Positions 2,512 to 45,380 of a DNA stretch of 45,380 nucleotides are shown in pieces (position 1 is the first letter of the stretch; every line of letters starts with the position of its first letter). The translations under genes were made by a program, and so were the position numbers. Source of the stretch: a virus (lineage: Duplodnaviria; Caudoviricetes); the IMG/VR virus record IMGVR_UViG_3300037834_000026, positions 1-45,380 of that record. One strand, given 5' to 3'. Below the pieces are notes generated by a model, which did not search any database, had not been told where the DNA came from, and saw only the letters and a list, made by a program, of their open reading frames with translations.

Positions 2512-3285
2512 TCACCGCTTTCCGAAATGCCGGTTGATCGCGTACACGATCTCCCCTTCCGACCAGGGCGGAACCGCGCACTGCGCGTTCCAGACATCCC
2601 GCAGGAACGCCAGCGTTTGCTCCGGCGTGCGCCCGGCGTCGCGCATGACGCACACCACGCGGACCAGTCCTTTGCTCCCGTTCTGGCCCTGAACGGAGGG
2701 GATTTTGAGGCAGTACGCTTCCGGGTTGGCGATCCGGCTCAAGCTGTCGCGGACCTCGCCGACAGCGCTTCCGGCAGGGCTCAAGATGATCCGCGCCGCC
2801 TTCTTGGTCCGCTCGCGCGTCCAGGCCACTTTGCACTTCGGCAGCTCGTCCAGGGCGGGGAGCCCTGGCCCGAGCCACTCGTAGCCCGGCGTCGGCGGGA
2901 TGATCGACAGGCCGATGCCGGTCAGCAGGTCCGCGTCTTCGCCCTTCACCTTGATGGTGCGCGAGCGTTCGACGCCCTTCCGCAGCAGGCCGTGGGCGTG
3001 CAGCCCGCCCGACGGCGTGCGGCAAATCGGCGCGTCTTTGAGTCCGCAGCGTTCCAGGATGTCGGCGGCGATGGCGCCGTCGTCCACGTCGATCACCACC
3101 AGCGGCTCGCGGGTGATGACGGCGATGCCGAAGGTCTCGCGCCACCCGCGCTGGATGTCCTCCACGGTGCGCGGCGCGGCGTACAGGTGACGCCACTTCT
3201 CGGCCGGCACCTTGCCTTCCAGCATGCTGACCGGCTCGTAGTCCAGTTGTTTCAGTTCCATTGCGATCTCCTTCATGGTCTTCAT
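2512..3285 (-). CDS. Bifunctional DNA primase/polymerase (Prim-Pol) with C-terminal PriCT-like helical domain
   Basis: LVVIDVDD (DxD), RTPSGGLH, IIPPT..GYEW; C-terminal WNAQCAVPPWSEGEI. Confidence 0.85.
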   Translation of the reverse strand: MKTMKEIAMELKQLDYEPVSMLEGKVPAEKWRHLYAAPRTVEDIQRGWRETFGIAVITREPLVVIDVDDGAIAADILERCGLKDAPICRTPSGGLHAHGLLRKGVERSRTIKVKGEDADLLTGIGLSIIPPTPGYEWLGPGLPALDELPKCKVAWTRERTKKAARIILSPAGSAVGEVRDSLSRIANPEAYCLKIPSVQGQNGSKGLVRVVCVMRDAGRTPEQTLAFLRDVWNAQCAVPPWSEGEIVYAINRHFGKR

Positions 3286-17448: not shown

Positions 17449-17700
17449 GGCTTGGGGGGGGTGGAAGACTGCTGCTTGGAGTCGCGGATGCCCGCGATGA
17501 CGATCATGTCCTGCTTGAGATCGATGGGGAGGAGAACGTATTCCCACGGGGGAATCCAGCCGAATCGTTCTATGAATGCCAGGTAGTTCCAACGGTCCAC
17601 GGCCTCGCGCTTGAGCGGCGTGGATGTCTCCACGCTGCCCCCCGAGCTACAGGAAACCCAGAGGGCGTGCTTCTGCATCAAGCGCTCAAGCCTTTTTTTT
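17445..17700 (-). CDS. Tail assembly chaperone -1 frameshift extension (gpT-like)
   Basis: Open in the -1 frame from the A8 run to TGA 17445; RFGWIPPWEY.LP. Confidence 0.75.
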
Positions 17701-23645: not shown

Positions 23646-24431
23646 CTACTTCTTGAGGCTCGCGTAGTAGCGCTTGGTGGCCGCAGTGGCGGCCTTGTCG
23701 TCCATGTGCATCTTCTCGCGGTAGAACTGGTAGTGCTCGTTGCTCTCGCGGGTGGCCTCGTTGAAGACGCCGGTTTCCACGTCATCGCCGCTGCCCTTCT
23801 TTTTCAAGTCGGGCGCGCGCTTGAGGTTCTTGATAATGTCCATGAACTGCTTCGCCATCGGCTCGGAGAGCTGACAGGCGAACTTGGCGATGGGCTTCAC
23901 GTCCTTGGGTAGCAAGACACCGGCGGCGTTCTTGTCGCTGAACTGGAGCTTGCGCAGGGCGCGCTTGGTCTCGCTGAACCGCAGCGACTGCTTGGCCTTG
24001 GCGGCCTCGCGCTCGGAGGCGGTCAGCGCCTTCTTCACCTTCTCCATGTCGTCGGCGGAGAAGACGAAGTTACCGTCCTTGTCCTGCTTGACTTCGTTAA
24101 AGACTTCGGACATGGCGGCCGGCTTCTCTTCGTCGTCGGCCGGCTCCTCTTCCTCGTCTTCCTCGTCGTCATCGCCTTCGGCGGCGGCGACGGGCTTGTC
24201 GCCTTCGGTGCCGCCGGGATTGTCGGCGGGCTTGTCGTCTTTGGGCTTGTCGCCTTCCGGCGCTTCGCCCTCGTCGGACTTGGCCTTCATCTCCTCCACG
24301 GCGGCGTCCAGCTTGGCGTTGTGGTCCGCCTCCGGCAGCTCCGCGTAGGCCTGTTCCAGCTCCTGGACGTCGTTCTTGGAGAGGGTCTTCTGCTCCGCAA
24401 ACTTTTCCATGAGCTTCAAAAACTTACCCAT
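23646..24431 (-). CDS. Nested in-frame scaffold protein (Mu gpZ-like)
   Basis: Internal ATG preceded by TTTATTTTTTTCCGATTCTCAACAC, the phage's leader style. Confidence 0.65.
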   Translation of the reverse strand: MGKFLKLMEKFAEQKTLSKNDVQELEQAYAELPEADHNAKLDAAVEEMKAKSDEGEAPEGDKPKDDKPADNPGGTEGDKPVAAAEGDDDEEDEEEEPADDEEKPAAMSEVFNEVKQDKDGNFVFSADDMEKVKKALTASEREAAKAKQSLRFSETKRALRKLQFSDKNAAGVLLPKDVKPIAKFACQLSEPMAKQFMDIIKNLKRAPDLKKKGSGDDVETGVFNEATRESNEHYQFYREKMHMDDKAATAATKRYYASLKK

Positions 24432-25268
24432 GTGTTGAGAATCGGAAAAAAATAAAGCCTGGTTCGATGGCTCGCCGGGGGCCGGTCCCTCCGACATCTG
24501 CAAGGGCTGCATGCCCTTGAAGAATGGCCGGTTGGTTAGTCCGCCTCCGATGAGGACATTGCGATGTTCGGTGCCGGTCTCCGCGTCCGTATACCGGAAC
24601 GCGATCTCCGGGCTGAAATACCTGTACTCCCCGTTGTTCACCTTGTCGGCGCCGAGCTTGGTCAGCGACATCCTGGCGAACAGGCGGTCCCTGTCGCCGT
24701 CCTTGAAGAACAGTTCGGTGTACCACGCCAGCGCCTTGTGGTCCTCCTCGTGGTTCTCGTCCACGGCCAGGTCGATGCCGCGCACCTTGTCGTCGAAATT
24801 CTTCTTCACCTCCTTGAGCGTCTGGCGCGTCACCTCCACGTCGCCGTACTCCGGGTGCTCCCACTTGCCCACCCGCATGATCTGGATTTCGATGGTGTCG
24901 CCCGCCGCGTAGGTCTTGCCCTTCTCGCCGAACTCGGTGAAGAACCACGCGCCAGCCGGGCGGTCAGCGAGCGCGGTTGCCAACGCCTCCGGGGTTTCCG
25001 CACACGACACGCACTCGGGTACTCCGCCGCACCACTTGGCGCGGTCGGCGATCAGTCCGTCGATGACGGCCTCAAGATCGGCGTCCTTCATCCGCTCGAC
25101 TTCCGGCCACAACCGCTCGCGGATGAACTGCTCCCGAATCCTCCACAGAACGCTGTTGAAGTCCTCGGCGGTGAGTTTCTTGGCGTAGACCATCCCCAGC
25201 ACCTTCCTGGCAAGGTCTTCGGAAACGCCGACTGCTTCTGCGAACAGTGCGGGCGTGAAGTGCTTCAT
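23646..25268 (-). CDS. Prohead protease-scaffold (Mu gpI-like)
   Basis: LAVDENH, ALAWY, YRYFSPEI, GGGLTNRPF; acidic C-terminal half. Confidence 0.88.
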   Translation of the reverse strand: MKHFTPALFAEAVGVSEDLARKVLGMVYAKKLTAEDFNSVLWRIREQFIRERLWPEVERMKDADLEAVIDGLIADRAKWCGGVPECVSCAETPEALATALADRPAGAWFFTEFGEKGKTYAAGDTIEIQIMRVGKWEHPEYGDVEVTRQTLKEVKKNFDDKVRGIDLAVDENHEEDHKALAWYTELFFKDGDRDRLFARMSLTKLGADKVNNGEYRYFSPEIAFRYTDAETGTEHRNVLIGGGLTNRPFFKGMQPLQMSEGPAPGEPSNQALFFSDSQHMGKFLKLMEKFAEQKTLSKNDVQELEQAYAELPEADHNAKLDAAVEEMKAKSDEGEAPEGDKPKDDKPADNPGGTEGDKPVAAAEGDDDEEDEEEEPADDEEKPAAMSEVFNEVKQDKDGNFVFSADDMEKVKKALTASEREAAKAKQSLRFSETKRALRKLQFSDKNAAGVLLPKDVKPIAKFACQLSEPMAKQFMDIIKNLKRAPDLKKKGSGDDVETGVFNEATRESNEHYQFYREKMHMDDKAATAATKRYYASLKK

Positions 25269-25633: not shown

Positions 25634-25770
25634 CGGAACATGGCGAAAGCAGCCGCTACCGCGAAAGCGAGCACCAAAGGAATTCCGATCATGGCCATGA
25701 CTTTGGCTGGCTTGCCATCAGGCATTTCATCGCCGGACTCCTGCGGATGCTCATACTCGTAGTCGTTCAT
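25630..25770 (-). CDS. 46-aa TM peptide (not in ORF track)
   Basis: MNDYEYEHPQESGDEMPDGKPAKVMAMIGIPLVLAFAVAAAFAMFR; ATGA overlaps at both ends. Confidence 0.65.
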   Translation of the reverse strand: MNDYEYEHPQESGDEMPDGKPAKVMAMIGIPLVLAFAVAAAFAMFR

Positions 25771-28406
25771 GCGTCAGGTTGGAAATGAATGCCGGAAGCA
25801 GACAAGCGTTCCTTCAACTCGCCAAAGTCAAGGGCGTCCTCCAGGTCGGCGATGCGGGCCAGGTGCTGCTCGATGCGCTGCGGGTGCGTGCCGGCCGCCC
25901 GGTACTCCTCCACCTTGGCGCGGCGCTCCTCCAGCTCGCGGCGGAACACGCGCGCGGCCGCGCTCCCTTCCTTGATTTCCGGCACGTCGATGTCCTCGTA
26001 CTCTTGGAGCGTCCCGATGGTCGGGATGCTGTCCGGCACATCCTCAATCTCGGGCTTGAACTCCTCATCCATCAGGATTTCCACCAACAGGCAGCGGCAT
26101 TCCCAGTGCCCCGGAGGCTGGTAGCGGGCCAGGGCCACGGCGGGCTCCATCACCCGGCCGTCCATGGACAGGCAGTAGTCGCACGTGGCGTTGTCCAGGA
26201 TGGCGCTGTACTGCATGGCGTGCACGCGCTCGGGGTAGCGCTCGAACACGGTGGCGCGGCCAAGGTTGAACGCGCCCATGACAGACAGCGTGCGCATGGT
26301 GGCCGTGTCGGCCATCACGTCGTCAATGGCGCTGGCGGCGGACTCCAGCGCGTCGGCGACATCGGTGTCGCTGATCCGGCCGGCGCTCTTGCTCGTCAGC
26401 TGCGTCACGCTGCTCTGCACGGCGTGTTCCAAGTCCTGGCCGAACTTGTCCACCATGGCGTCGTTCTGCACCCGCATTGCCCCGCGCACCTCGGCGCTGG
26501 TTGCCGGCACGCGGACGCCGAGTTCGTTGGCGGCCGCCTTCTTGCCGCGCTCGAACATCTCCTTGCGAACGTCGGTGAGCGCCCTGGCCATCTCGCCGCC
26601 GTACTGGGCCTCGATGCGGCCGACGGCCTTGATGTCGTTGTTCGCCACCGCCTGCTTCACCTGATGCAGCAGGTCCGCCTTCTGCATGGCGGTGATGTGC
26701 GTAAGCTGCTCGTCCAGCGCCGTCTCGAACTCGTCCACGGTGTCGCGGATGCTGCCCAGCTTGATCTTGCGTTCCGCGAACGTCAGCGGGCGCCAGAACT
26801 TGCCCTCGTCATCGCTGAACTTGAAGCCTTTTTTTTTTAGCTTCTCGACCTCCTCGGGCGAAGCGGCGGCCTTCTGGAGCCGGAGTATCAGGCCGTTGTC
26901 GATGAGCGCGCTGAACCGCCGGTAGCGCTCGTTGGCCTTCACCTTCTCGTCGGGCTTCTTCTGCGGCGTGTCGGCCGGCTCCGGCGCGTCCTTGGCGCCG
27001 GGCTTCCCCGGCAGAGGCTGGCCGTCGGGCCCGACCTGCGGCGGATCCAGGCTGGGGCGCGGCGGCGCGTCGTCGGCCTTGGGCGGCAGGTCCAGCAGGT
27101 CGCGCACGTGCTTCTCGGTCGGGTCGTCCGGCACGATCACTTTGACCTGTACGAGCTTCTGGAGCGCGTCCACCACCAGCGCGAACTTGTCGCTGCCTAT
27201 CTTCTTGAACTTGAGCTCCGGGTACTGCTCCACGCCGTCGAAGTTCAGGTCCACGAGCTCCGGGATGACGTAGCGGTTGAACGTGTCGGCGATCTGCTGC
27301 GCGATGGCCTGGAGCGACAGGTAGAAGAAGGCGCTGTGGTCCTCGCTGGTGGCCTTGGCCCCGCCGGAGCCGGAGTGCCCGCCGATCTCCACGAACTGCG
27401 CCAGGATGTTCTTGGCGATCTCGCGGTTGTGGTGCTCCACCGACGTGTACAGGTCGGTGAGCGATCCCACCTTGTAGTCCGGGAACAGGAAATCCCACTC
27501 GAAGGGAATCACCAGCCCGGCGCGCTCGTTGACGCGGATGCCGTCCACGATGGCCTGCGCCTTGGCGATGTCCTTCTTGCTCGCGTTCTTCGGCATCTTG
27601 ATCGTGGGCAGGCCCACGGCCATGCGCTCCTGGCGCACGGCGTCGAACTTGTAGAACGAGTCCTTCATCAGCCAGTGCTTGTACGCCGAGCGCAGCACCG
27701 AAACGCCCTGGTAGTTGCTGCCCTCGCGGCGGAAGGTGAAGACCAGAAGCTTGGCGGCCGGGATCGACACCGTGTTCTTGCCCTGGTTCTCCCCGGCGGG
27801 CTTCATGTAGGGCAGTATCTGGGTGACGCCGGGCGCTCCGTCCTCGGTCTCCCACTTGTGGATCGTGCGCTGCTTGCGGCTCTCCAGCGCCTTGAGCCAC
27901 ACGTGTTCGCCGTCGATCTCGTAGACCTTCTCGTGGACGGAGAAGCCGAACGGCAGCATGGTGAGGATTTCGCGCAGCGTGTCGTCCCACGTCTGGTGCA
28001 TGCGCTTGAACAGCGCGTTCTCCACGAACTCGGCTACCTCCTCGGCCTGGGCGTCGCTCGTGCCGTGCTTGTCCTTGGCCGGGTCGATGTACCACGTGGT
28101 GCCACGGATGGGGTACTCGATGGCGCAGAGCGTGGCGAACACCTGGCCGTCGCTTTTGCGCATGCGGTCGAACTGGTCCAGCCCGGCGACGCCGGCCAGC
28201 TTGGCAAGGTAATCCTGCTCGAGGAAGCCGTTGACCAGGATGGTGCCGGAGCCGCCGAGATCGGCCACCAAGTCTTTGAGCTGGACTTCGGACGGTTCTA
28301 CGGCGGTGGGCGCGATCTGCGCGGCCGACGACTTGGTGATCTTGCCCGCCGACGGTTTGCTGTTCTTGGCTTTGCCGACTTTCTCTGCGCGGTTCGGGGA
28401 GGGCAT
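25767..28406 (-). CDS. Portal (DUF935/Mu gp29-like) fused to MuF/SPP1 gp7-like minor head domain
   Basis: ILTMLPFGFSVHE, GVSVLRSAY, HNREIAKNIL, IPELVDLNF; C-terminal YSAILD..TCDYC.SMDGR...PPGHWECRC. Confidence 0.88.
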   Translation of the reverse strand: MPSPNRAEKVGKAKNSKPSAGKITKSSAAQIAPTAVEPSEVQLKDLVADLGGSGTILVNGFLEQDYLAKLAGVAGLDQFDRMRKSDGQVFATLCAIEYPIRGTTWYIDPAKDKHGTSDAQAEEVAEFVENALFKRMHQTWDDTLREILTMLPFGFSVHEKVYEIDGEHVWLKALESRKQRTIHKWETEDGAPGVTQILPYMKPAGENQGKNTVSIPAAKLLVFTFRREGSNYQGVSVLRSAYKHWLMKDSFYKFDAVRQERMAVGLPTIKMPKNASKKDIAKAQAIVDGIRVNERAGLVIPFEWDFLFPDYKVGSLTDLYTSVEHHNREIAKNILAQFVEIGGHSGSGGAKATSEDHSAFFYLSLQAIAQQIADTFNRYVIPELVDLNFDGVEQYPELKFKKIGSDKFALVVDALQKLVQVKVIVPDDPTEKHVRDLLDLPPKADDAPPRPSLDPPQVGPDGQPLPGKPGAKDAPEPADTPQKKPDEKVKANERYRRFSALIDNGLILRLQKAAASPEEVEKLKKKGFKFSDDEGKFWRPLTFAERKIKLGSIRDTVDEFETALDEQLTHITAMQKADLLHQVKQAVANNDIKAVGRIEAQYGGEMARALTDVRKEMFERGKKAAANELGVRVPATSAEVRGAMRVQNDAMVDKFGQDLEHAVQSSVTQLTSKSAGRISDTDVADALESAASAIDDVMADTATMRTLSVMGAFNLGRATVFERYPERVHAMQYSAILDNATCDYCLSMDGRVMEPAVALARYQPPGHWECRCLLVEILMDEEFKPEIEDVPDSIPTIGTLQEYEDIDVPEIKEGSAAARVFRRELEERRAKVEEYRAAGTHPQRIEQHLARIADLEDALDFGELKERLSASGIHFQPDA

Positions 28407-28420
28407 GAGGCGGGCGGGGG

Positions 28421-29857
28421 TTACCACTGCTGGCGCAGGAAGTTCGGCGATGCCCGTTCGTTCTGCTCGTCGTCCTCGCGGTCCTTTTCCTCCGGGCTGC
28501 TGAGTTCCGGTGACGTGAACCCGCTGCGTCGCTTGAGCGATTCGTTCACCGGGTCCAGCGCGTCGATGGACTCAAGAGTACCAGAAAACTCCATGAGGCC
28601 ATAGCGAAGAGCGTCGGCGGCGTGATCCTCCAGGCCGGTGTCCAGGTCTTCCACGTCCTTCTCGTCGTGGATCATCTCCGGCAGCGTGCGGATCAGGTTG
28701 GCGCAGTTGCTCGTGATGCGCAGCCTGGCCGTGAGCCGCCCGCCGTTGGGGTCCGGGCGCGGCGCCAGGAACTTGTGAACCACGTTCCAGCCTTCCAGGC
28801 GCTCGTTGTTGGCCAGCGACACGGAAACGCCGTGGTCGCGGAACGCCTGCGAGAACGTGTTGCCCGCCTCGTTCTCCTTCTCCACCACGGACGGGTCGAA
28901 CACGCCGTAATCGATGTCCTCGTCCTGCGTGGTCAGCGCCTCCACGCGCGCCGCCAGCTCGTCGTACAGCAGGCCGGTCACGTACAGCTCCCGGTAGCAG
29001 ACCACGGTGTCGTCGTTCATCAGCGCCAGCCACAGCACGCACGACGGCTTCTTGAACCCGTAGTCTCCGCAGACGATGCGCTTCTTCACGCCGCGCACCG
29101 GGATGAACGGAGGGACGACGTGGACGTCGCGGTTGAACTCGGTGAAGTACTGGCCCTCGAACACGTCCCAGTCGCCCAGCAGGTACGCCCGGCGCTGGTT
29201 GTCCGGCAGGTCTTCTAAGTCGCGCAGGTACTGCGGGTTGTTCTCGGTGATGAAGCGGTTGTCGTAGACGCGGGCCGGGATGAACGCGTAGTCGGCCGGG
29301 TTCTCCGACTTGTGGAACCGGCGGTCGATCCATATGCGGCGCACCCACGCGTGGCCGACGCCGCCGGGGTTGGTGGAGCCGAAGAAGTTGGGGACGATGC
29401 CGCGCCGCGACGTTCGCAGCGACGTCTTGAGAATCTTGAACTCCTTCTCCTGCCAGTGCGTGAGCTCCTCGATGCACTCGAAGTCGTATTCGATGCCCTG
29501 GTATTGCAGCACGTCCTTGAAGTTCCGGCAGTAGCCGAAGCGGACGGTGCTGCCGTTTCGGAACGTCAGAATGCCCTTGGTCGCGTTGTAATCGTAGATG
29601 CCTTTGGGGAGTTCGGAGAGCATGGGGACCACCATGTTCTCCTCGATCTCCGGGAACGTGCGGCGCAGCGCCAGGCCGCGCACGTTGGGCGCCGACAGCG
29701 CCTGGCGGACGCACTCCATTCGCATGGCGTGGCTCTTGCCGCCGCCCTTGGCCCCGCCGTACAGGCGGAAGCGAGCGGGGCACTGCATGAACTCCCACTG
29801 CTTGGGCTGGATGACCTGATAGGCCGGGATTTGGACGGTGCCGCTAGGCTTGGCCAT
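28421..29857 (-). CDS. terL: Terminase large subunit
   Basis: YGGAKGGGKS, CIEEL, STNPGG.GH.W, GDYGF, EDHAADALRY. Confidence 0.95.
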   Translation of the reverse strand: MAKPSGTVQIPAYQVIQPKQWEFMQCPARFRLYGGAKGGGKSHAMRMECVRQALSAPNVRGLALRRTFPEIEENMVVPMLSELPKGIYDYNATKGILTFRNGSTVRFGYCRNFKDVLQYQGIEYDFECIEELTHWQEKEFKILKTSLRTSRRGIVPNFFGSTNPGGVGHAWVRRIWIDRRFHKSENPADYAFIPARVYDNRFITENNPQYLRDLEDLPDNQRRAYLLGDWDVFEGQYFTEFNRDVHVVPPFIPVRGVKKRIVCGDYGFKKPSCVLWLALMNDDTVVCYRELYVTGLLYDELAARVEALTTQDEDIDYGVFDPSVVEKENEAGNTFSQAFRDHGVSVSLANNERLEGWNVVHKFLAPRPDPNGGRLTARLRITSNCANLIRTLPEMIHDEKDVEDLDTGLEDHAADALRYGLMEFSGTLESIDALDPVNESLKRRSGFTSPELSSPEEKDREDDEQNERASPNFLRQQW

Positions 29858-33050: not shown

Positions 33051-33280
33051 TCAGCCGGGAACAACAGCTTGTGCATGTAATAGTCCATCAGGACAAGGTA
33101 GTTTTCTGCCAGGACCTTGCCCTGGCCAAGCTCGAATCGTGCGATGCTGGCGATGCTCAGGCCGGTATCCGCTGCAACTTCTTCCAGCGTGATCTCGTTC
33201 GCGCGTCGCCTGCATCGGAAATCCTCACCCTGCTTCTTGATATGTTCCTGTGCCCGCGAGCGGAGATTCGAGGCGTTCAT
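33047..33280 (-). CDS. XRE/Cro-family HTH regulator
   Basis: RRRANEITLEEVAADTGLSIASIARFELG. Confidence 0.85.
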   Translation of the reverse strand: MNASNLRSRAQEHIKKQGEDFRCRRRANEITLEEVAADTGLSIASIARFELGQGKVLAENYLVLMDYYMHKLLFPAE

Positions 33281-34770
33281 GCGGCGACAGCAGGAGCGGG
33301 CAGGCCGAACTGAGCGCGGACCATCGCGGCCGCGTTCGGCGGACAGACAGAGTTGCCGCACATCCTGACCTGGGCGGTCTTGCTCAGCGGCTTGCCCCGG
33401 AACTCCGGGTCGATCTGGTAGTCGTCCGGGAAGCCCTGCGCGCGGTACAGTTCGCGCGGCGTGAGCATCCGCAGGCCGATGTCGGCGATGACGTACTGCT
33501 CGCCGCGGATCGTTACCACCGGCTCGGCGCGACCGTCCCCGTCGTGATTGACCAGGAATGTCCGGACCTCGGCCAGATGCTGGCCCTGGGCGCTGATCGT
33601 CGCCATGGGGTCCGTCACGGGCTGACCGTGGCGGCACGTTCCACGCAGCTTCACGAGGCTCGACGTCACGACGGTGTGGTGTGCCCCGGTGGTGACGGTC
33701 TTGAGCGGCGCTCGCGGCGACGTTGGCGCGTTCCCGGTCGTGTTGTGCATCAGGTTGGCGACGACCAGGCTGTGGTGGTCCCTAGCTGTCACCGTCCCCA
33801 TCGCGTCTTTCATCTTGCTGCCGACCACTCCGGTGTAATGCTTGGCCAGGAACGCCGTGACCAGGGCGTGCTTCTGCCCGCCGGCGACTACGGTTCCGAG
33901 CGGCTTGTCCAGGCCCGGAGCGCGCGGTGCCTGGCCGTCACGCTCGCCGTACCCGGTCTGGACCAGGGTGGCACCGGCGCCATGCACGACGAACGGGTCC
34001 GGTGACTCGATGACGAACCGGCGCAGCCCGGCGGCGACGCGGCGCAGCGTGTTCTTTGCCAGCGGCTTCTTGCGGCCGAAGATGGACGGACACGGGATCG
34101 ACCAGTCGATGCATTCCGCCGCAGTCCGCCATGGTTGCAACTCGCCGCCTTTCGGGCCGTATTGCGGCTCCGGGAAGATGATGGGCTTCTCGTCGCAGCG
34201 CGCCACGATGAACAGGCGTTTTCGGATGGTGGGCGCACCGTAGTCACACGCCCGCAGGGGCTTGGCCTTTACGGCGTAGCCCAGGGTTTTCAGTTGCTTC
34301 TCCCAGCGATCATACGTGGAGCCCTTCCGCTGCTTGCAGGGCAGGCCAGTGTCATCCAGCGGCCCCCAGTCCCGGAACTCCTCGACGTTCTCCAGGATGA
34401 TGACGCGCGGCCGGACCGCCTTCGCCCACTTCACGACGATCCAGGCGAGGCCGCGAATCTTCTTGCTGACGGGCTTGCCGCCCTTCGCCTTGGAGAAATG
34501 CTTGCAGTCCGGGCTGAACCAGGCCAGGCCTACGGGGCGGCCGGCGCAGGCATCGGCGGGGTCCACTGTCCACACGTCCTCGCAGTAGTGGCGCGTAGCC
34601 GGATGGTTGGCCCGGTGCATTGCGATGGCTTCCGGGTCATGGTTGATGGCGATGTCCGGCGAGCGGCGCAGCGCCATTTCGATCCCGAGCGATGCGCCGC
34701 CACCGCCGGCGAAATTATCGACGATGAGTTCGCCGGGGAGGAGGCCGACGGCGGCGCCCAGCGTGCTCAT
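33277..34770 (-). CDS. Phage-type orphan C5 cytosine methyltransferase
   Basis: DNFAGGGG, FSPDCKHFS, LENVEEF, RKRLF, RMLTPREL..AQGFP, CGNSVCP. Confidence 0.93.
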   Translation of the reverse strand: MSTLGAAVGLLPGELIVDNFAGGGGASLGIEMALRRSPDIAINHDPEAIAMHRANHPATRHYCEDVWTVDPADACAGRPVGLAWFSPDCKHFSKAKGGKPVSKKIRGLAWIVVKWAKAVRPRVIILENVEEFRDWGPLDDTGLPCKQRKGSTYDRWEKQLKTLGYAVKAKPLRACDYGAPTIRKRLFIVARCDEKPIIFPEPQYGPKGGELQPWRTAAECIDWSIPCPSIFGRKKPLAKNTLRRVAAGLRRFVIESPDPFVVHGAGATLVQTGYGERDGQAPRAPGLDKPLGTVVAGGQKHALVTAFLAKHYTGVVGSKMKDAMGTVTARDHHSLVVANLMHNTTGNAPTSPRAPLKTVTTGAHHTVVTSSLVKLRGTCRHGQPVTDPMATISAQGQHLAEVRTFLVNHDGDGRAEPVVTIRGEQYVIADIGLRMLTPRELYRAQGFPDDYQIDPEFRGKPLSKTAQVRMCGNSVCPPNAAAMVRAQFGLPAPAVAA

Positions 34771-42873: not shown

Positions 42874-43296
42874 ATGGACATGTTCACCAAGGAGCGGCGT
42901 TCCGAGATCATGGCCCGAATAACCGGCAAGGACACCAAGCCGGAGATTCTGGTCAGGAGGCTCCTGCACCGCATGGGGTTCCGGTTTCGGATTCACAGGA
43001 CGGATTTGCCTGGGAAGCCTGACATCGTGCTGCCGAAGTACAAGTCCGTGGTCTTCGTTCACGGGTGCTTCTGGCACGGGCACGATTGCAAGAAGGGAAG
43101 CTCGACGCGCCGCCCCAAGAGCAACACCGGCTACTGGAACCAGAAGCTGGACCGCAATCGGACACGTGACGCACGTAACGCAGAGCAGCTGCGAGACCTG
43201 GGCTGGAGGCGGATTGTCATATGGGCCTGCGAAATGGCAGACCTGGAAAGTCTAGAACGCCGGCTGCGAACGGAGTTGGAAAGCACTCCGTCGTGA
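42874..43296 (+). CDS. vsr: Very short patch repair endonuclease
   Basis: RSEIMARI.GKDTKPE, LPGKPDIV, FVHGCFWHGH, LGW....WACE. Confidence 0.95.
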   Translation: MDMFTKERRSEIMARITGKDTKPEILVRRLLHRMGFRFRIHRTDLPGKPDIVLPKYKSVVFVHGCFWHGHDCKKGSSTRRPKSNTGYWNQKLDRNRTRDARNAEQLRDLGWRRIVIWACEMADLESLERRLRTELESTPS

Positions 43297-44240
43297 AGCC
43301 GACGGTGGCCTCGTTTTTCTCGGGCATCGGCGGCTTCGATCTGGGTTTCGAGCGTGCCGGGTTCAGTGTGACTTACCAGTGTGAGATCAATGCATACTGC
43401 CGATCAATCCTCCAGAAACACTGGCCGATCCTCACGCCGAGCGAGGACATCAAAAAAGCCACCGACCGAACAGCCATCCCTGTTTCCGATGTCTGGGCCG
43501 GAGGATTCCCCTGCCAAGACGTCTCCTTGGCTCGCATGGGGCCGAGAGCTGGGCTTAAAGGGCGACAGTCTGGACTCTTTCATGAGTTTTCTCGGTTGGT
43601 TGGAGAGCACCGCCCCAGAGTTGTTCTCATCGAAAACGTGCCAGGTCTTCTCTCTTCCCACGAAGGGCGAGACTTCCTCGTTGTCGTTCAAACTCTGGCC
43701 GAACTCGGGTATGGTGTGGGATGGCGTGTGCTTAACAGCAAAAACTTCGGAATCCCCCAGTCACGCCAGCGAGTCTTCATTGTGGGAACTCATGGAGAAA
43801 GGGGAGGTCCCGCAGAAGTACTTTTTGAGTCCGAATGCGGCGAAGGGAATTCTGCGCCGCGCGGACCGGATGAAGCGCGAGCTGTTTCCCCCTTTAAGGA
43901 AAGCGTTGGAGATCCTATCAAAGGCCCAATCGTGAAGCGGATGGCGCACTGCCTGTACGCCTGCTCGGCACGCCATACCGGGACCGACTGGAGCCGGAAT
44001 TACGCCGTCTACCCCGAAGGCCGAGTCCGCCGGTTCGTGCCCGTTGAGTGCGAGCGGTTGCAAGGCTTCCCGGACGGTTGGACCATACCGGCAGAGGGCT
44101 CGCCGTTCTGCTGCGCCGACGACCTCGACTCGCTGCGGTACTACGCCCTTGGCAACGCTGTTTCTGTTCCCGTCGCCGAGTGGCTTGCTACCCGCATCGC
44201 CCGCTACCTCGCCAACCATCCGACATCAGCCAAAAAGTAA
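43293..44240 (+). CDS. C5 cytosine methyltransferase (alpha polypeptide)
   Basis: FFSGIGG, GGFPCQD, IENVPG, QSRQRVF, ECERLQGFPD, GNAVSVPV; GTG overlaps vsr stop. Confidence 0.95.
   Translation: MKPTVASFFSGIGGFDLGFERAGFSVTYQCEINAYCRSILQKHWPILTPSEDIKKATDRTAIPVSDVWAGGFPCQDVSLARMGPRAGLKGRQSGLFHEFSRLVGEHRPRVVLIENVPGLLSSHEGRDFLVVVQTLAELGYGVGWRVLNSKNFGIPQSRQRVFIVGTHGERGGPAEVLFESECGEGNSAPRGPDEARAVSPFKESVGDPIKGPIVKRMAHCLYACSARHTGTDWSRNYAVYPEGRVRRFVPVECERLQGFPDGWTIPAEGSPFCCADDLDSLRYYALGNAVSVPVAEWLATRIARYLANHPTSAKK
43381..43935 (+). CDS. Overprinted +1-frame ORF, putative MTase beta polypeptide
   Basis: 184 codons inside the MTase gene; WPNSGM...SESPS...SSL..LME...PQKYFLSP.AA.GILRRA; start uncertain. 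Confidence 0.7.
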   Translation: MRSMHTADQSSRNTGRSSRRARTSKKPPTEQPSLFPMSGPEDSPAKTSPWLAWGRELGLKGDSLDSFMSFLGWLESTAPELFSSKTCQVFSLPTKGETSSLSFKLWPNSGMVWDGVCLTAKTSESPSHASESSLWELMEKGEVPQKYFLSPNAAKGILRRADRMKRELFPPLRKALEILSKAQS

Positions 44241-45380
44241 CGTCTCCAGCGCGGCCAGCGCTTCCGGCGACGGCCGCTCCGCAGCGCTCGCCGGGAGTCT
44301 CGGCGACGGGATCGTTCCGCTGCCCCGCAAGACCGCCTCGTCAATTTGAACGCCGGCGTCCTGCATCCTCTCCGCCGACGCCGCCGGAACGATGACCTCG
44401 TATGCGGTGCCGTTCCAGCGCACCAGGATCAGCCCCTCGTCAAACGCCCAGTGGTGCAGCTTGCACAGGCAGATGCCGTTGCGCGCGTGGTCCAGGTCGT
44501 ACTCCGCGTATGGCAGGATGTGCGCCGAGTCCACGCCGGGGCATCCGCCGCTGCCGACCGGCGGCAGGCGAAGGCCGCAGACCGCACAGGTGAACCGCCA
44601 AGCCCGCTGCACCTGGCGCCGGAACCGCACCGCAGAACCTCCCCGCGCGGCGGCCCATCTGCGCTGTTGGGCGATGGTCCGGCGCCGAAGCACGATATCC
44701 TCTTGCGGGATCGCCGTCGGGTTGATGTTCGCCTCGGGCGGGTCGATCTGGATGATGCTCTCCAGCGTGGGAAGCGGGTCGGTGTTCGGCGCGGCGGGCA
44801 CCACGTCATAGTCCGCCGCCGTCTCCGCCATACGCTGCTGTAGGTCGTCGGTGATCCTCAATGCGTCGTGAGACACCATCCCGCCGCCCTGCATGAGCTG
44901 GCGATGCTCGGCCAACAGGTCTCTAACATCGTCCTCGTACCTGGCCGCGTGGTCCCACAGCCGAACAACCTCGGCGTAGCGGTCGGCGAACGCGAACTCA
45001 TGCTGTCCCGACTGGTTGCGCACCTCCACCAGACGGACGGTCACGACCGCCAGCCCCGGCTGCGTCACGTCCACTGCGCCGAGCCGCAGGTGCATGATGC
45101 CGTACTCCCGGTTGCGCATGATTGGCTGGCCGGGCATCCAGGCGTCCTCATCGCGGGCCGGTCGTGGAAGCAGGAGCGCTCCGGCGACGTGCCAGTGTGG
45201 ATACAGGTCGCGCCCGCCGGCCTGGTCGGCAGCGAGCCGTATACGATGCTTGCCGCCCTGCTCGCCAAAGATCGATCCGGTGTCGATGGTGTTCCCGTCG
45301 GGAAGGCGGATGCGGATGCGACGCCCGAGAAGGACGTCCTGCTGCGGGTCTCCGGTCTGGAAGTCCGGGTCCCCCGGCAT
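44226..45380 (-). CDS. HNH endonuclease, putative cognate restriction enzyme
   Basis: CAVCG...DSAHILP....D..RNGICLCKLHHWAFDEGLI; convergent with MTase. Confidence 0.85.
   Translation of the reverse strand: MPGDPDFQTGDPQQDVLLGRRIRIRLPDGNTIDTGSIFGEQGGKHRIRLAADQAGGRDLYPHWHVAGALLLPRPARDEDAWMPGQPIMRNREYGIMHLRLGAVDVTQPGLAVVTVRLVEVRNQSGQHEFAFADRYAEVVRLWDHAARYEDDVRDLLAEHRQLMQGGGMVSHDALRITDDLQQRMAETAADYDVVPAAPNTDPLPTLESIIQIDPPEANINPTAIPQEDIVLRRRTIAQQRRWAAARGGSAVRFRRQVQRAWRFTCAVCGLRLPPVGSGGCPGVDSAHILPYAEYDLDHARNGICLCKLHHWAFDEGLILVRWNGTAYEVIVPAASAERMQDAGVQIDEAVLRGSGTIPSPRLPASAAERPSPEALAALETLLFG

Follow-up and report, generated by a model that had tools for sequence, protein, structure and literature searches.

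The closest described parallels to the element considered here, an A10 tract inside the fused portal-MuF gene of a 45,380-nt provirus record (IMG/VR IMGVR_UViG_3300037834_000026; GC 64%; the whole stretch was analyzed and is called the window below), are sites of transcriptional or ribosomal slippage; papers are cited here and below for the parts of them that treat the point in question. In Thermus thermophilus dnaX (tau/gamma), an A9 run gives mRNAs of mixed length, and stop codons in both other frames yield the short form at about 1:1 (PMC5009743, PMC1088944). The window gene resembles dnaX in having a long product encoded by one open reading frame (ORF), an A run, near stops in both non-zero frames, a short form expected from slipped transcripts, and two products that would be subunits of one complex, and it differs in encoding part of a phage head and not of a replisome, in the tract being A10, in the enrichment of a 5' hairpin, and in that slippage is here predicted from sequence. 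The Roseiflexus IS630 element likewise has a nascent-RNA hairpin directly 5' of its slip motif, but that motif is a T5C5 heteropolymer at which a one-way deletion leads to the long product (PMC5009743), whereas the run here consists of A only, its hairpin differs in register between relatives and is weak in the window, and the predicted outcome of slippage is a shorter product. In Citrobacter rodentium tssM1 (A11), poly-A slippage produces two length variants of a structural subunit whose ratio matters, which is the outcome proposed here, although tssM1 encodes a type VI secretion system membrane protein and its short form is the unslipped one (PMC4256274). The described phage cases are tail chaperones, the major capsid protein and the tail tube; in lambda gpG/gpGT and the capsid and tail-tube extension frameshifts recoding sets the ratio of short to extended structural protein, as it might here, but the shift makes the longer, minority form (PMC5009743, PMC6316719). 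A search of open-licence papers in PubMed Central and bioRxiv, with subscription papers and supplements outside its scope, returned no description of portal-gene recoding; the word 'portal' is absent from the examined part of the Atkins review and from the GeneTack survey, and the relevant sections of PMC5512222, PMC2628397 and PMC4493119 hold nothing on it.

We propose that the host RNA polymerase slips on A10 within the in-frame portal-MuF gene, such that transcripts with 10 (or 13) A's would encode the 879-aa portal-MuF fusion and transcripts with 8, 9, 11 or 12 A's a plain portal of 531-541 aa, with a nascent-RNA hairpin just upstream possibly boosting slippage. On the comparisons described below, a programmed slip of some kind at A10 is very likely, and we put the probability that the slipping agent is RNA polymerase at about 0.55. 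Plain and MuF-bearing forms could then co-assemble in the portal ring, metering MuF into the head, and the prohead protease may later cut MuF free; with an efficiency like that of dnaX, half of the ring would bear MuF. Current models show the portal as a ring of 12 subunits that are all identical, to which MuF/gp7, made separately, is added as a passenger. In SPP1, which has the same domains in the same order but as two genes (gp6 and gp7) whose products bind non-covalently, gp7 is found on the portal at one to few copies (PMC5576092, PMC6316719), and it is from this low copy number that we infer the purpose of the switch, since a slip would let one gene supply both plain and MuF-bearing subunits.

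The A10 tract at the portal/MuF boundary

The fusion gene occupies 25767-28427 on the minus strand (886 aa counted from GTG, or 879 aa from the ATG at 28406, which is the likely start; 45 further homologous proteins), with a portal domain followed in frame by MuF (PF04233) and with terminase and protease genes on its two sides. The portal domain (PF06074 by Pfam, aa 84-444, 27096-28178) matches portals of the G20c/P23-45/P74-26 type in fold, and portals are the best fold matches of a structure model of the whole fusion, which gives a portal fold to about aa 444, low confidence to 523, and a confident MuF half from about aa 545. Between the halves lies a Pro/Lys-rich linker (aa 445-498, 26934-27095) that is predicted to be disordered (model pLDDT below 50 at 454-465 and 470-515) and is closed by a KANE motif that may be a prohead-protease site; this is followed by a conserved short helical segment (aa 499-519, 26871-26933), with which the portal ORF of split relatives ends and which would be retained in the slipped product, and then by a predicted RNA hairpin (26840-26864, stem 26864-26860 with 26844-26840) that ends 1 nt short of the A run. 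The MuF (SPP1 gp7-like) half extends over 25767-26828, with PF04233 at aa 719-781 (26273-26085).

On the minus strand the junction reads AAG CTA AAA AAA AAA GGC TTC, with the A10 at 26838-26829 (codons 530-533 of the ORF), just before MuF. It is the sole A/T run of at least 9 nt in the 45,380 nt, the next longest being an A8 at 17700-17693, and its composition is unusual for the gene, which has 9 AAA codons (3 of them in the tract) versus 56 AAG, and in which the CTA preceding the run is the only one among 71 leucine codons. In the -1 frame, which corresponds to one extra A, the reading KKKRLQVQR is ended within 6 codons by a TGA at 26811-26809, giving 532 aa from the ATG, and transcripts with A11 or A8 would thus encode a portal of 531-532 aa ending in RLQVQR. 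The +1 frame is closed after 14 codons by a TGA at 26785-26783; one A fewer gives 540 aa, and A9 or A12 transcripts would encode 540-541 aa ending in ASSSAMTRASSGAR. The first-pass annotation of this DNA had placed the tract between the Pro-rich linker and MuF in a gene otherwise preferring AAG, and had predicted a portal of about 532 aa from a -1 slip and a stop within about 18 codons after a +1 slip, all of which was reproduced.

Conservation of the tract and of its codons

For comparison 165 related loci were taken, leaving out the window's own record (L090) and L084. A junction profile at E ≤ 1e-9 recovered 54 sequences including the window, and after two lacking upstream sequence were dropped the remaining 52 formed 34 clusters at 80% identity. 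Half of these (17) have Lys-Lys-Lys at the homologous place, and all 51 lysine codons are AAA, while the share of AAA in the rest of these genes ranges from 5 to 80%. The run is A10 in 16 of the 17 (A9 in L102), and the codon before it, for Leu, Ile, Val or Ala, ends in A in 16 of the 17. The product of the codon-usage probabilities for all-AAA coding is about 1e-30 (about 1e-24 without the window), values that overstate independence, and the portals of 16 tract clusters are only 35-77% identical (median 47%). This is a run of at least 9 A's in coding sequence conserved beyond codon bias, as in dnaX, and on this comparative evidence the A10 tract is under selection. The earlier annotation had suggested checking whether homologs retain AAA codons and a nearby out-of-frame stop, AAG codons being what would refute it; in the 17 clusters with Lys-Lys-Lys the codons proved to be AAA throughout and the stops are near, which together support its proposal that slippage within one gene makes the short form as the shifted product.

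A protein motif (LKKKG) that needs its lysines was considered as an explanation and ruled out: the middle position varies freely (KKK in 31 of 45 homologous proteins, with KAK, KQK, KSK, RAR and others in the remainder), and A9-10 runs occur in 11 further loci at other, non-homologous linker positions, 12-180 nt before MuF. Two of the tracts (L046 and L111) lie in a different codon phase, and their length remains 10. Over the fused loci, the linkers (34,464 nt) contain 24 runs of at least 10 A's, whereas the portal and MuF domains (174,033 nt) contain 0 and the remaining sequence (1,120,437 nt) contains 6. In a tree of 102 portals the tract-bearing sequences are scattered over several clades and intermixed with tract-less ones.

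The same data bear on phase variation, which the first-pass annotation had offered as an alternative and in which replication slippage would switch MuF on and off in the phage population. Homopolymers of 10 are generally mutable, and in one relative (L109) an A9 leaves MuF out of frame. Against this, no length variant occurs among members of the 8 multi-member tract clusters (some of which are one contig filed twice), almost every locus has an in-frame run of 9-10 even though no frame requirement was imposed in the searches, and the 5' hairpin described below is not predicted. No tract-length variant was seen in the single contig (depth 14.6) of one sequencing run, which may be the window's source, contigs being prone to drop rare variants. 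Phase variation thus has little support and is the least probable of the explanations weighed here.

Stops in both shifted frames and an upstream hairpin

Across the 17 clusters, a reader in the -1 frame would meet its first stop after a median of 4 codons, and one in the +1 frame after a median of 3. Against a positional null the stops of each frame seemed significant, but against synonymous resampling only the joint closure of both frames held, and it is this test that we report: for 19 tract clusters, p = 0.78 for -1 alone, a marginal p = 0.034 for +1, and Fisher p = 0.0006 for joint closure, with no effect in 11 clusters without a tract (p about 1). The 11 loci with tracts at other positions (10 further ones plus L111, which is already among the 19 clusters) behave similarly (-1, p = 0.59; +1, p = 0.18; joint, p = 0.003). 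A long product in the zero frame combined with close stops in both other frames is the arrangement of dnaX, and because the -1 frame alone is not significant and only joint closure is, the pattern fits slippage that is blind to direction.

In 17 tract clusters the 33 nt upstream of the run have a stronger predicted fold than their synonymous resamplings (Fisher p = 1e-6, mean z -1.5), and the same test in 9 clusters without a tract gives p = 0.67. Of 28 positions in a sliding analysis, this one gives the strongest signal. The hairpins end 0-4 nt before the run, and their stems, like those of terminators, have no fixed register. Agreement is weaker in the 11 other loci, which are independent of the discovery of the hairpin (p = 0.024). 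The terminator-like placement suggests an explanation in which the hairpin and A run act as a pause or partial terminator, or the lysine codons stall the ribosome, the short portal coming from truncated messages or released peptides. However, the run on the sense strand is A rather than U, hairpin and run do not follow each other as they would in an antisense terminator, the protease and capsid genes are still to come beyond the site, and truncation would call for no early stop in either shifted frame, so that this account is very improbable.

A more serious competitor, though one we consider unlikely, is that the ribosome makes both products, by -1 tandem slippage at A_AAA_AAA or by sliding on poly-A. 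The predominant phase, xxA AAA AAA AAA, offers the heptamer A AAA AAA (of the X XXY YYZ type) twice in frame, as in the window; the -1 stop is close at its median of 4 codons; and in the window a GAGGAGG lies 11 nt upstream. This last element was rejected as a stimulator, since strong Shine-Dalgarno-like pairing is found only in the window and is not conserved, and the phage's own gene starts lack such motifs (0 of 17 likely starts). No conserved 3' structure was found in the 17 clusters (mean fold z -0.5) by a test for stem-loops, so neither of the conserved stimulators expected of a bacterial -1 frameshift, a 3' stem-loop or an upstream Shine-Dalgarno-like site, is present in the clusters tested. 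Also contrary to ribosomal shifting, the -1 stop alone is no closer than under synonymous resampling, the in-frame run ends in AAA rather than the shiftier AAG in all 17 clusters, and a hairpin abutting the site would better suit the polymerase exit channel. In the PURE system A9 and A10 give little ribosome sliding product in vitro and A11 gives much (PMC4363877), and an added A could therefore also feed ribosome sliding. The first-pass annotation had left the choice between ribosomal and transcriptional slippage open; slippage itself is supported, and the evidence leans to the polymerase, because both frames are closed, length is kept over phase, 3' and Shine-Dalgarno-like stimulators are missing, and the 5' hairpin is Roseiflexus-like. 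The ribosomal alternative retains some weight because Firmicutes relatives use ribosomal-type heptamers, as described next, and because E. coli RNA polymerase favors T runs.

Split and cultured relatives at the same junction

In seven split relatives (L026, L036, L050, L061, L071, L113 and L114) the portal ORF extends through the pre-tract helix and terminates a few codons beyond it, MuF being read in a different frame. The portal of L026 ends on the same A10 (GTA AAA AAA AAA TCC TAA) with MuF open in the -1 frame, and in L109, with its A9, MuF is open in +1. From these comparisons the tract site is the natural end of the portal. In L150 the portal ORF extends into an extra domain that by eye resembles an ADP-ribosyltransferase, and MuF is in another frame.

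Searches of cultured phages by tblastn found distant relatives in Firmicutes phages and no cultured phage carrying the in-frame form over 80% of its length. Twelve records were examined from the top rows of the tblastn lists (L169-L171 and L176-L184): phiT1, Anath, S4-2, 1_ICo-2020, MVC_VPHSA2, DZ1, GBK1, vB_BpsS-36, 019DV002, Andromeda, Jayan and Leo2, under accessions PQ069204, PV767480, MG983742, MT700412, OR670592, OR338916, MN727882, MH884513, MN176220, KC330684, PQ299153 and KU836751; among these, B. subtilis phage 019DV002 is MN176220, B. pumilus phage Andromeda KC330684 and Geobacillus phage GBK1 MN727882. All 12 have a -1 heptamer at the portal end or one codon before it, G GGA AAG in 7, A AAA AAG in 3 and G GGA AAA in 2, the first being also the one reported for TP901-1 gpG. 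In 11 of them the -1 frame stays open across MuF, and in MVC_VPHSA2 it stops 20 codons on; the -1 reading gives K-V/I-x-x-S-E/D and then T/S-F/Y-G/A-E/D-R, resembling LTFAERK in the window, with phiT1 diverging. The 12 phages are mutually related (MuF 33-61% identical to GBK1), and the replacement of one heptamer type by another is the trace expected of selection for shifting. In the 11 annotated records portal and MuF appear as two genes with no frameshift (S4-2 has no annotation), and the MuF starts of the cultured Bacillus subtilis and B. pumilus phages are probably mis-annotated.

Taken with the window, these relatives incline us, somewhat beyond even odds, to regard recoding at the portal/MuF junction as a general and unannotated rule of a large family of phages with Mu-like proteases, one that would set the number of MuF-bearing subunits and that has found three solutions: a -1 heptamer, as in the cultured Bacillus phages; a poly-A run that leaves MuF in another frame; and, in the window, the reverse arrangement, where an A10 aided by a hairpin lies in an in-frame fusion and the essential plain portal is the slipped product. 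If so, the portal would join the short list of phage genes with recoding, and many phages would build mixed rings with a genetically set MuF-bearing share, which bears on the metering of MuF, and of toxin or enzyme cargo, into heads. The window would also supply a naturally occurring homopolymer on which polymerase slippage is assisted by a hairpin, one of a class of slip sites inside intact ORFs that searches for broken genes overlook. The core claim is open to direct testing in the cultured B. subtilis and B. pumilus phages.

Fusions without a tract and possible processing of the fusion

One important consideration is that many relatives are fused and have no tract. Among 79 clusters at 80% portal identity (L013 and L087 being assigned to the fused class by hand), 25 are fused with a tract, 2 are mixed, 8 are split or listed as such, and 44 are fused without a run of at least 9 A's in the linker. 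These suggest an explanation in which essentially only the fusion is made and the prohead protease frees MuF after assembly, leaving the tract as a relic or in a minor role. Microbacterium phages of clusters EA3/EA5/EA8 and EB are described as having constitutive portal-MuF fusions, in which these two domains follow each other as they do here, with no slip site reported in the sections on them (PMC7302621). The Mu-like prohead protease/scaffold of the window (23646-25268, minus strand), a candidate processor of the fusion, and 30 related ORFs are rich in [AFMLY][SNA][ED], a motif defined after seeing the data, with 350 occurrences against 146 expected (2.4-fold); no enrichment was found in capsid, tube and terminase proteins. 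The motif also occurs around the portal/MuF junction and near the MuF C-terminus, and it is a probable site of self- and prohead cleavage. Cutting after x-x-E is a known activity of prohead proteases in T4-like and phiKZ-like phages. Proteolysis, however, is compatible with slippage, and production of the fusion only leaves unexplained the all-AAA coding across portals 35-77% identical, the tracts at several linker positions, the double stop and the hairpin; a relic would decay to AAG at 64% GC. We therefore regard a fusion-only gene as improbable, less so than terminator or phase-variation effects.

Several points weigh against polymerase slippage at A10, the reading preferred here, which rests on comparison of DNA sequences. 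The tract-less fusions are the most substantial, being common also among clusters at least 38% identical to the window portal (10 fused without a tract versus 17 with one) and at short range, where L043 has the A10 and 12 loci at 80% or more portal identity do not. A scan of 61 tract-less fused loci for runs of at least 6 and for -1 heptamers found no consistent slip signal of another kind, so portal rings in which every subunit is fused appear viable, and a low MuF share is therefore not obligatory. Proteolysis may free MuF with or without slippage. The 5' hairpin was noticed during inspection of the data, before testing, and in the window itself the hairpin does not exceed chance expectation (p = 0.63 against synonymous resampling; z = +1.9 against shuffles). 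The lineages share ancestry, and pooled p-values thus overstate independence. E. coli RNA polymerase slips more readily on T than on A runs (PMC6260861), and the heptamers of the cultured relatives (GGGAAAG, AAAAAAG) indicate that the family can use the ribosome. Finally, L026 and L109 each have a possible ATG start for MuF.

Two observations on linkers may be added. L006 and L007, which lack the usual tract, have an A9 (ACA AAA AAA AAG) close to where a long linker insertion begins, 784 nt before MuF, with a -1 stop one codon on, and this run is absent from their close relatives L012, L013, L096 and L097. In L004, L006, L008, L014, L016, L027, L095 and L102, insertions of about 0.9-1.4 kb separate the portal from the pre-tract helix, and these would remain on the short portal too.

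Gene context, host and other sites in the window

The late genes of the window lie on the minus strand in the order terminase, portal-MuF (28427-25767), a small ORF, Mu-like protease/scaffold, capsid and tail. The A8 at 17693-17700 (minus strand) is at the end of a probable tail-chaperone gene (18049-17678), where the -1 frame is open to 17445, as at a G/GT-type site; a 12-bp stem-loop lies 26 nt downstream (17666-17637) and another hairpin lies upstream, and 7 of 11 relatives have A7-A9 runs about as far behind the tube gene. The first-pass annotation had noted that the context AAAAAAAAGGCTT is common to this site and the A10, which is true in the window; it is conserved in relatives at neither site, and the GGCTT context was rejected as a signal. 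L019 and L029 have the A run at the tail site and lack the portal tract.

The closest relatives of the window prophage are all uncultured; by metagenome-assembled genome (MAG), two belong to Ca. Peribacteria and one to Patescibacteria. In the phylum of the Peribacteria MAG, matches were found in 2 of 401 genomes, these being the prophages of L088 and probably L086. Many of the closest relatives use TGA as a sense codon. Because relatives lie in such MAGs, many of the relatives read TGA as sense and the window's gene starts lack Shine-Dalgarno motifs, the host is likely a member of the Patescibacteria. Upstream of the late-gene starts of the window there are pyrimidine-rich leaders in place of Shine-Dalgarno motifs. 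The L085 contig is binned as a Neomarinimicrobiota MAG, and its portal-MuF domains contain 30 in-frame TGA codons, for which reason it is probably a mis-binned phage of a code-25 host. Other genes recognized in the window encode a primase-polymerase (2512-3285), two C5 cytosine methyltransferases (33277-34770, minus strand, and 43221-44240, plus strand) and an HNH endonuclease (44226-45380).

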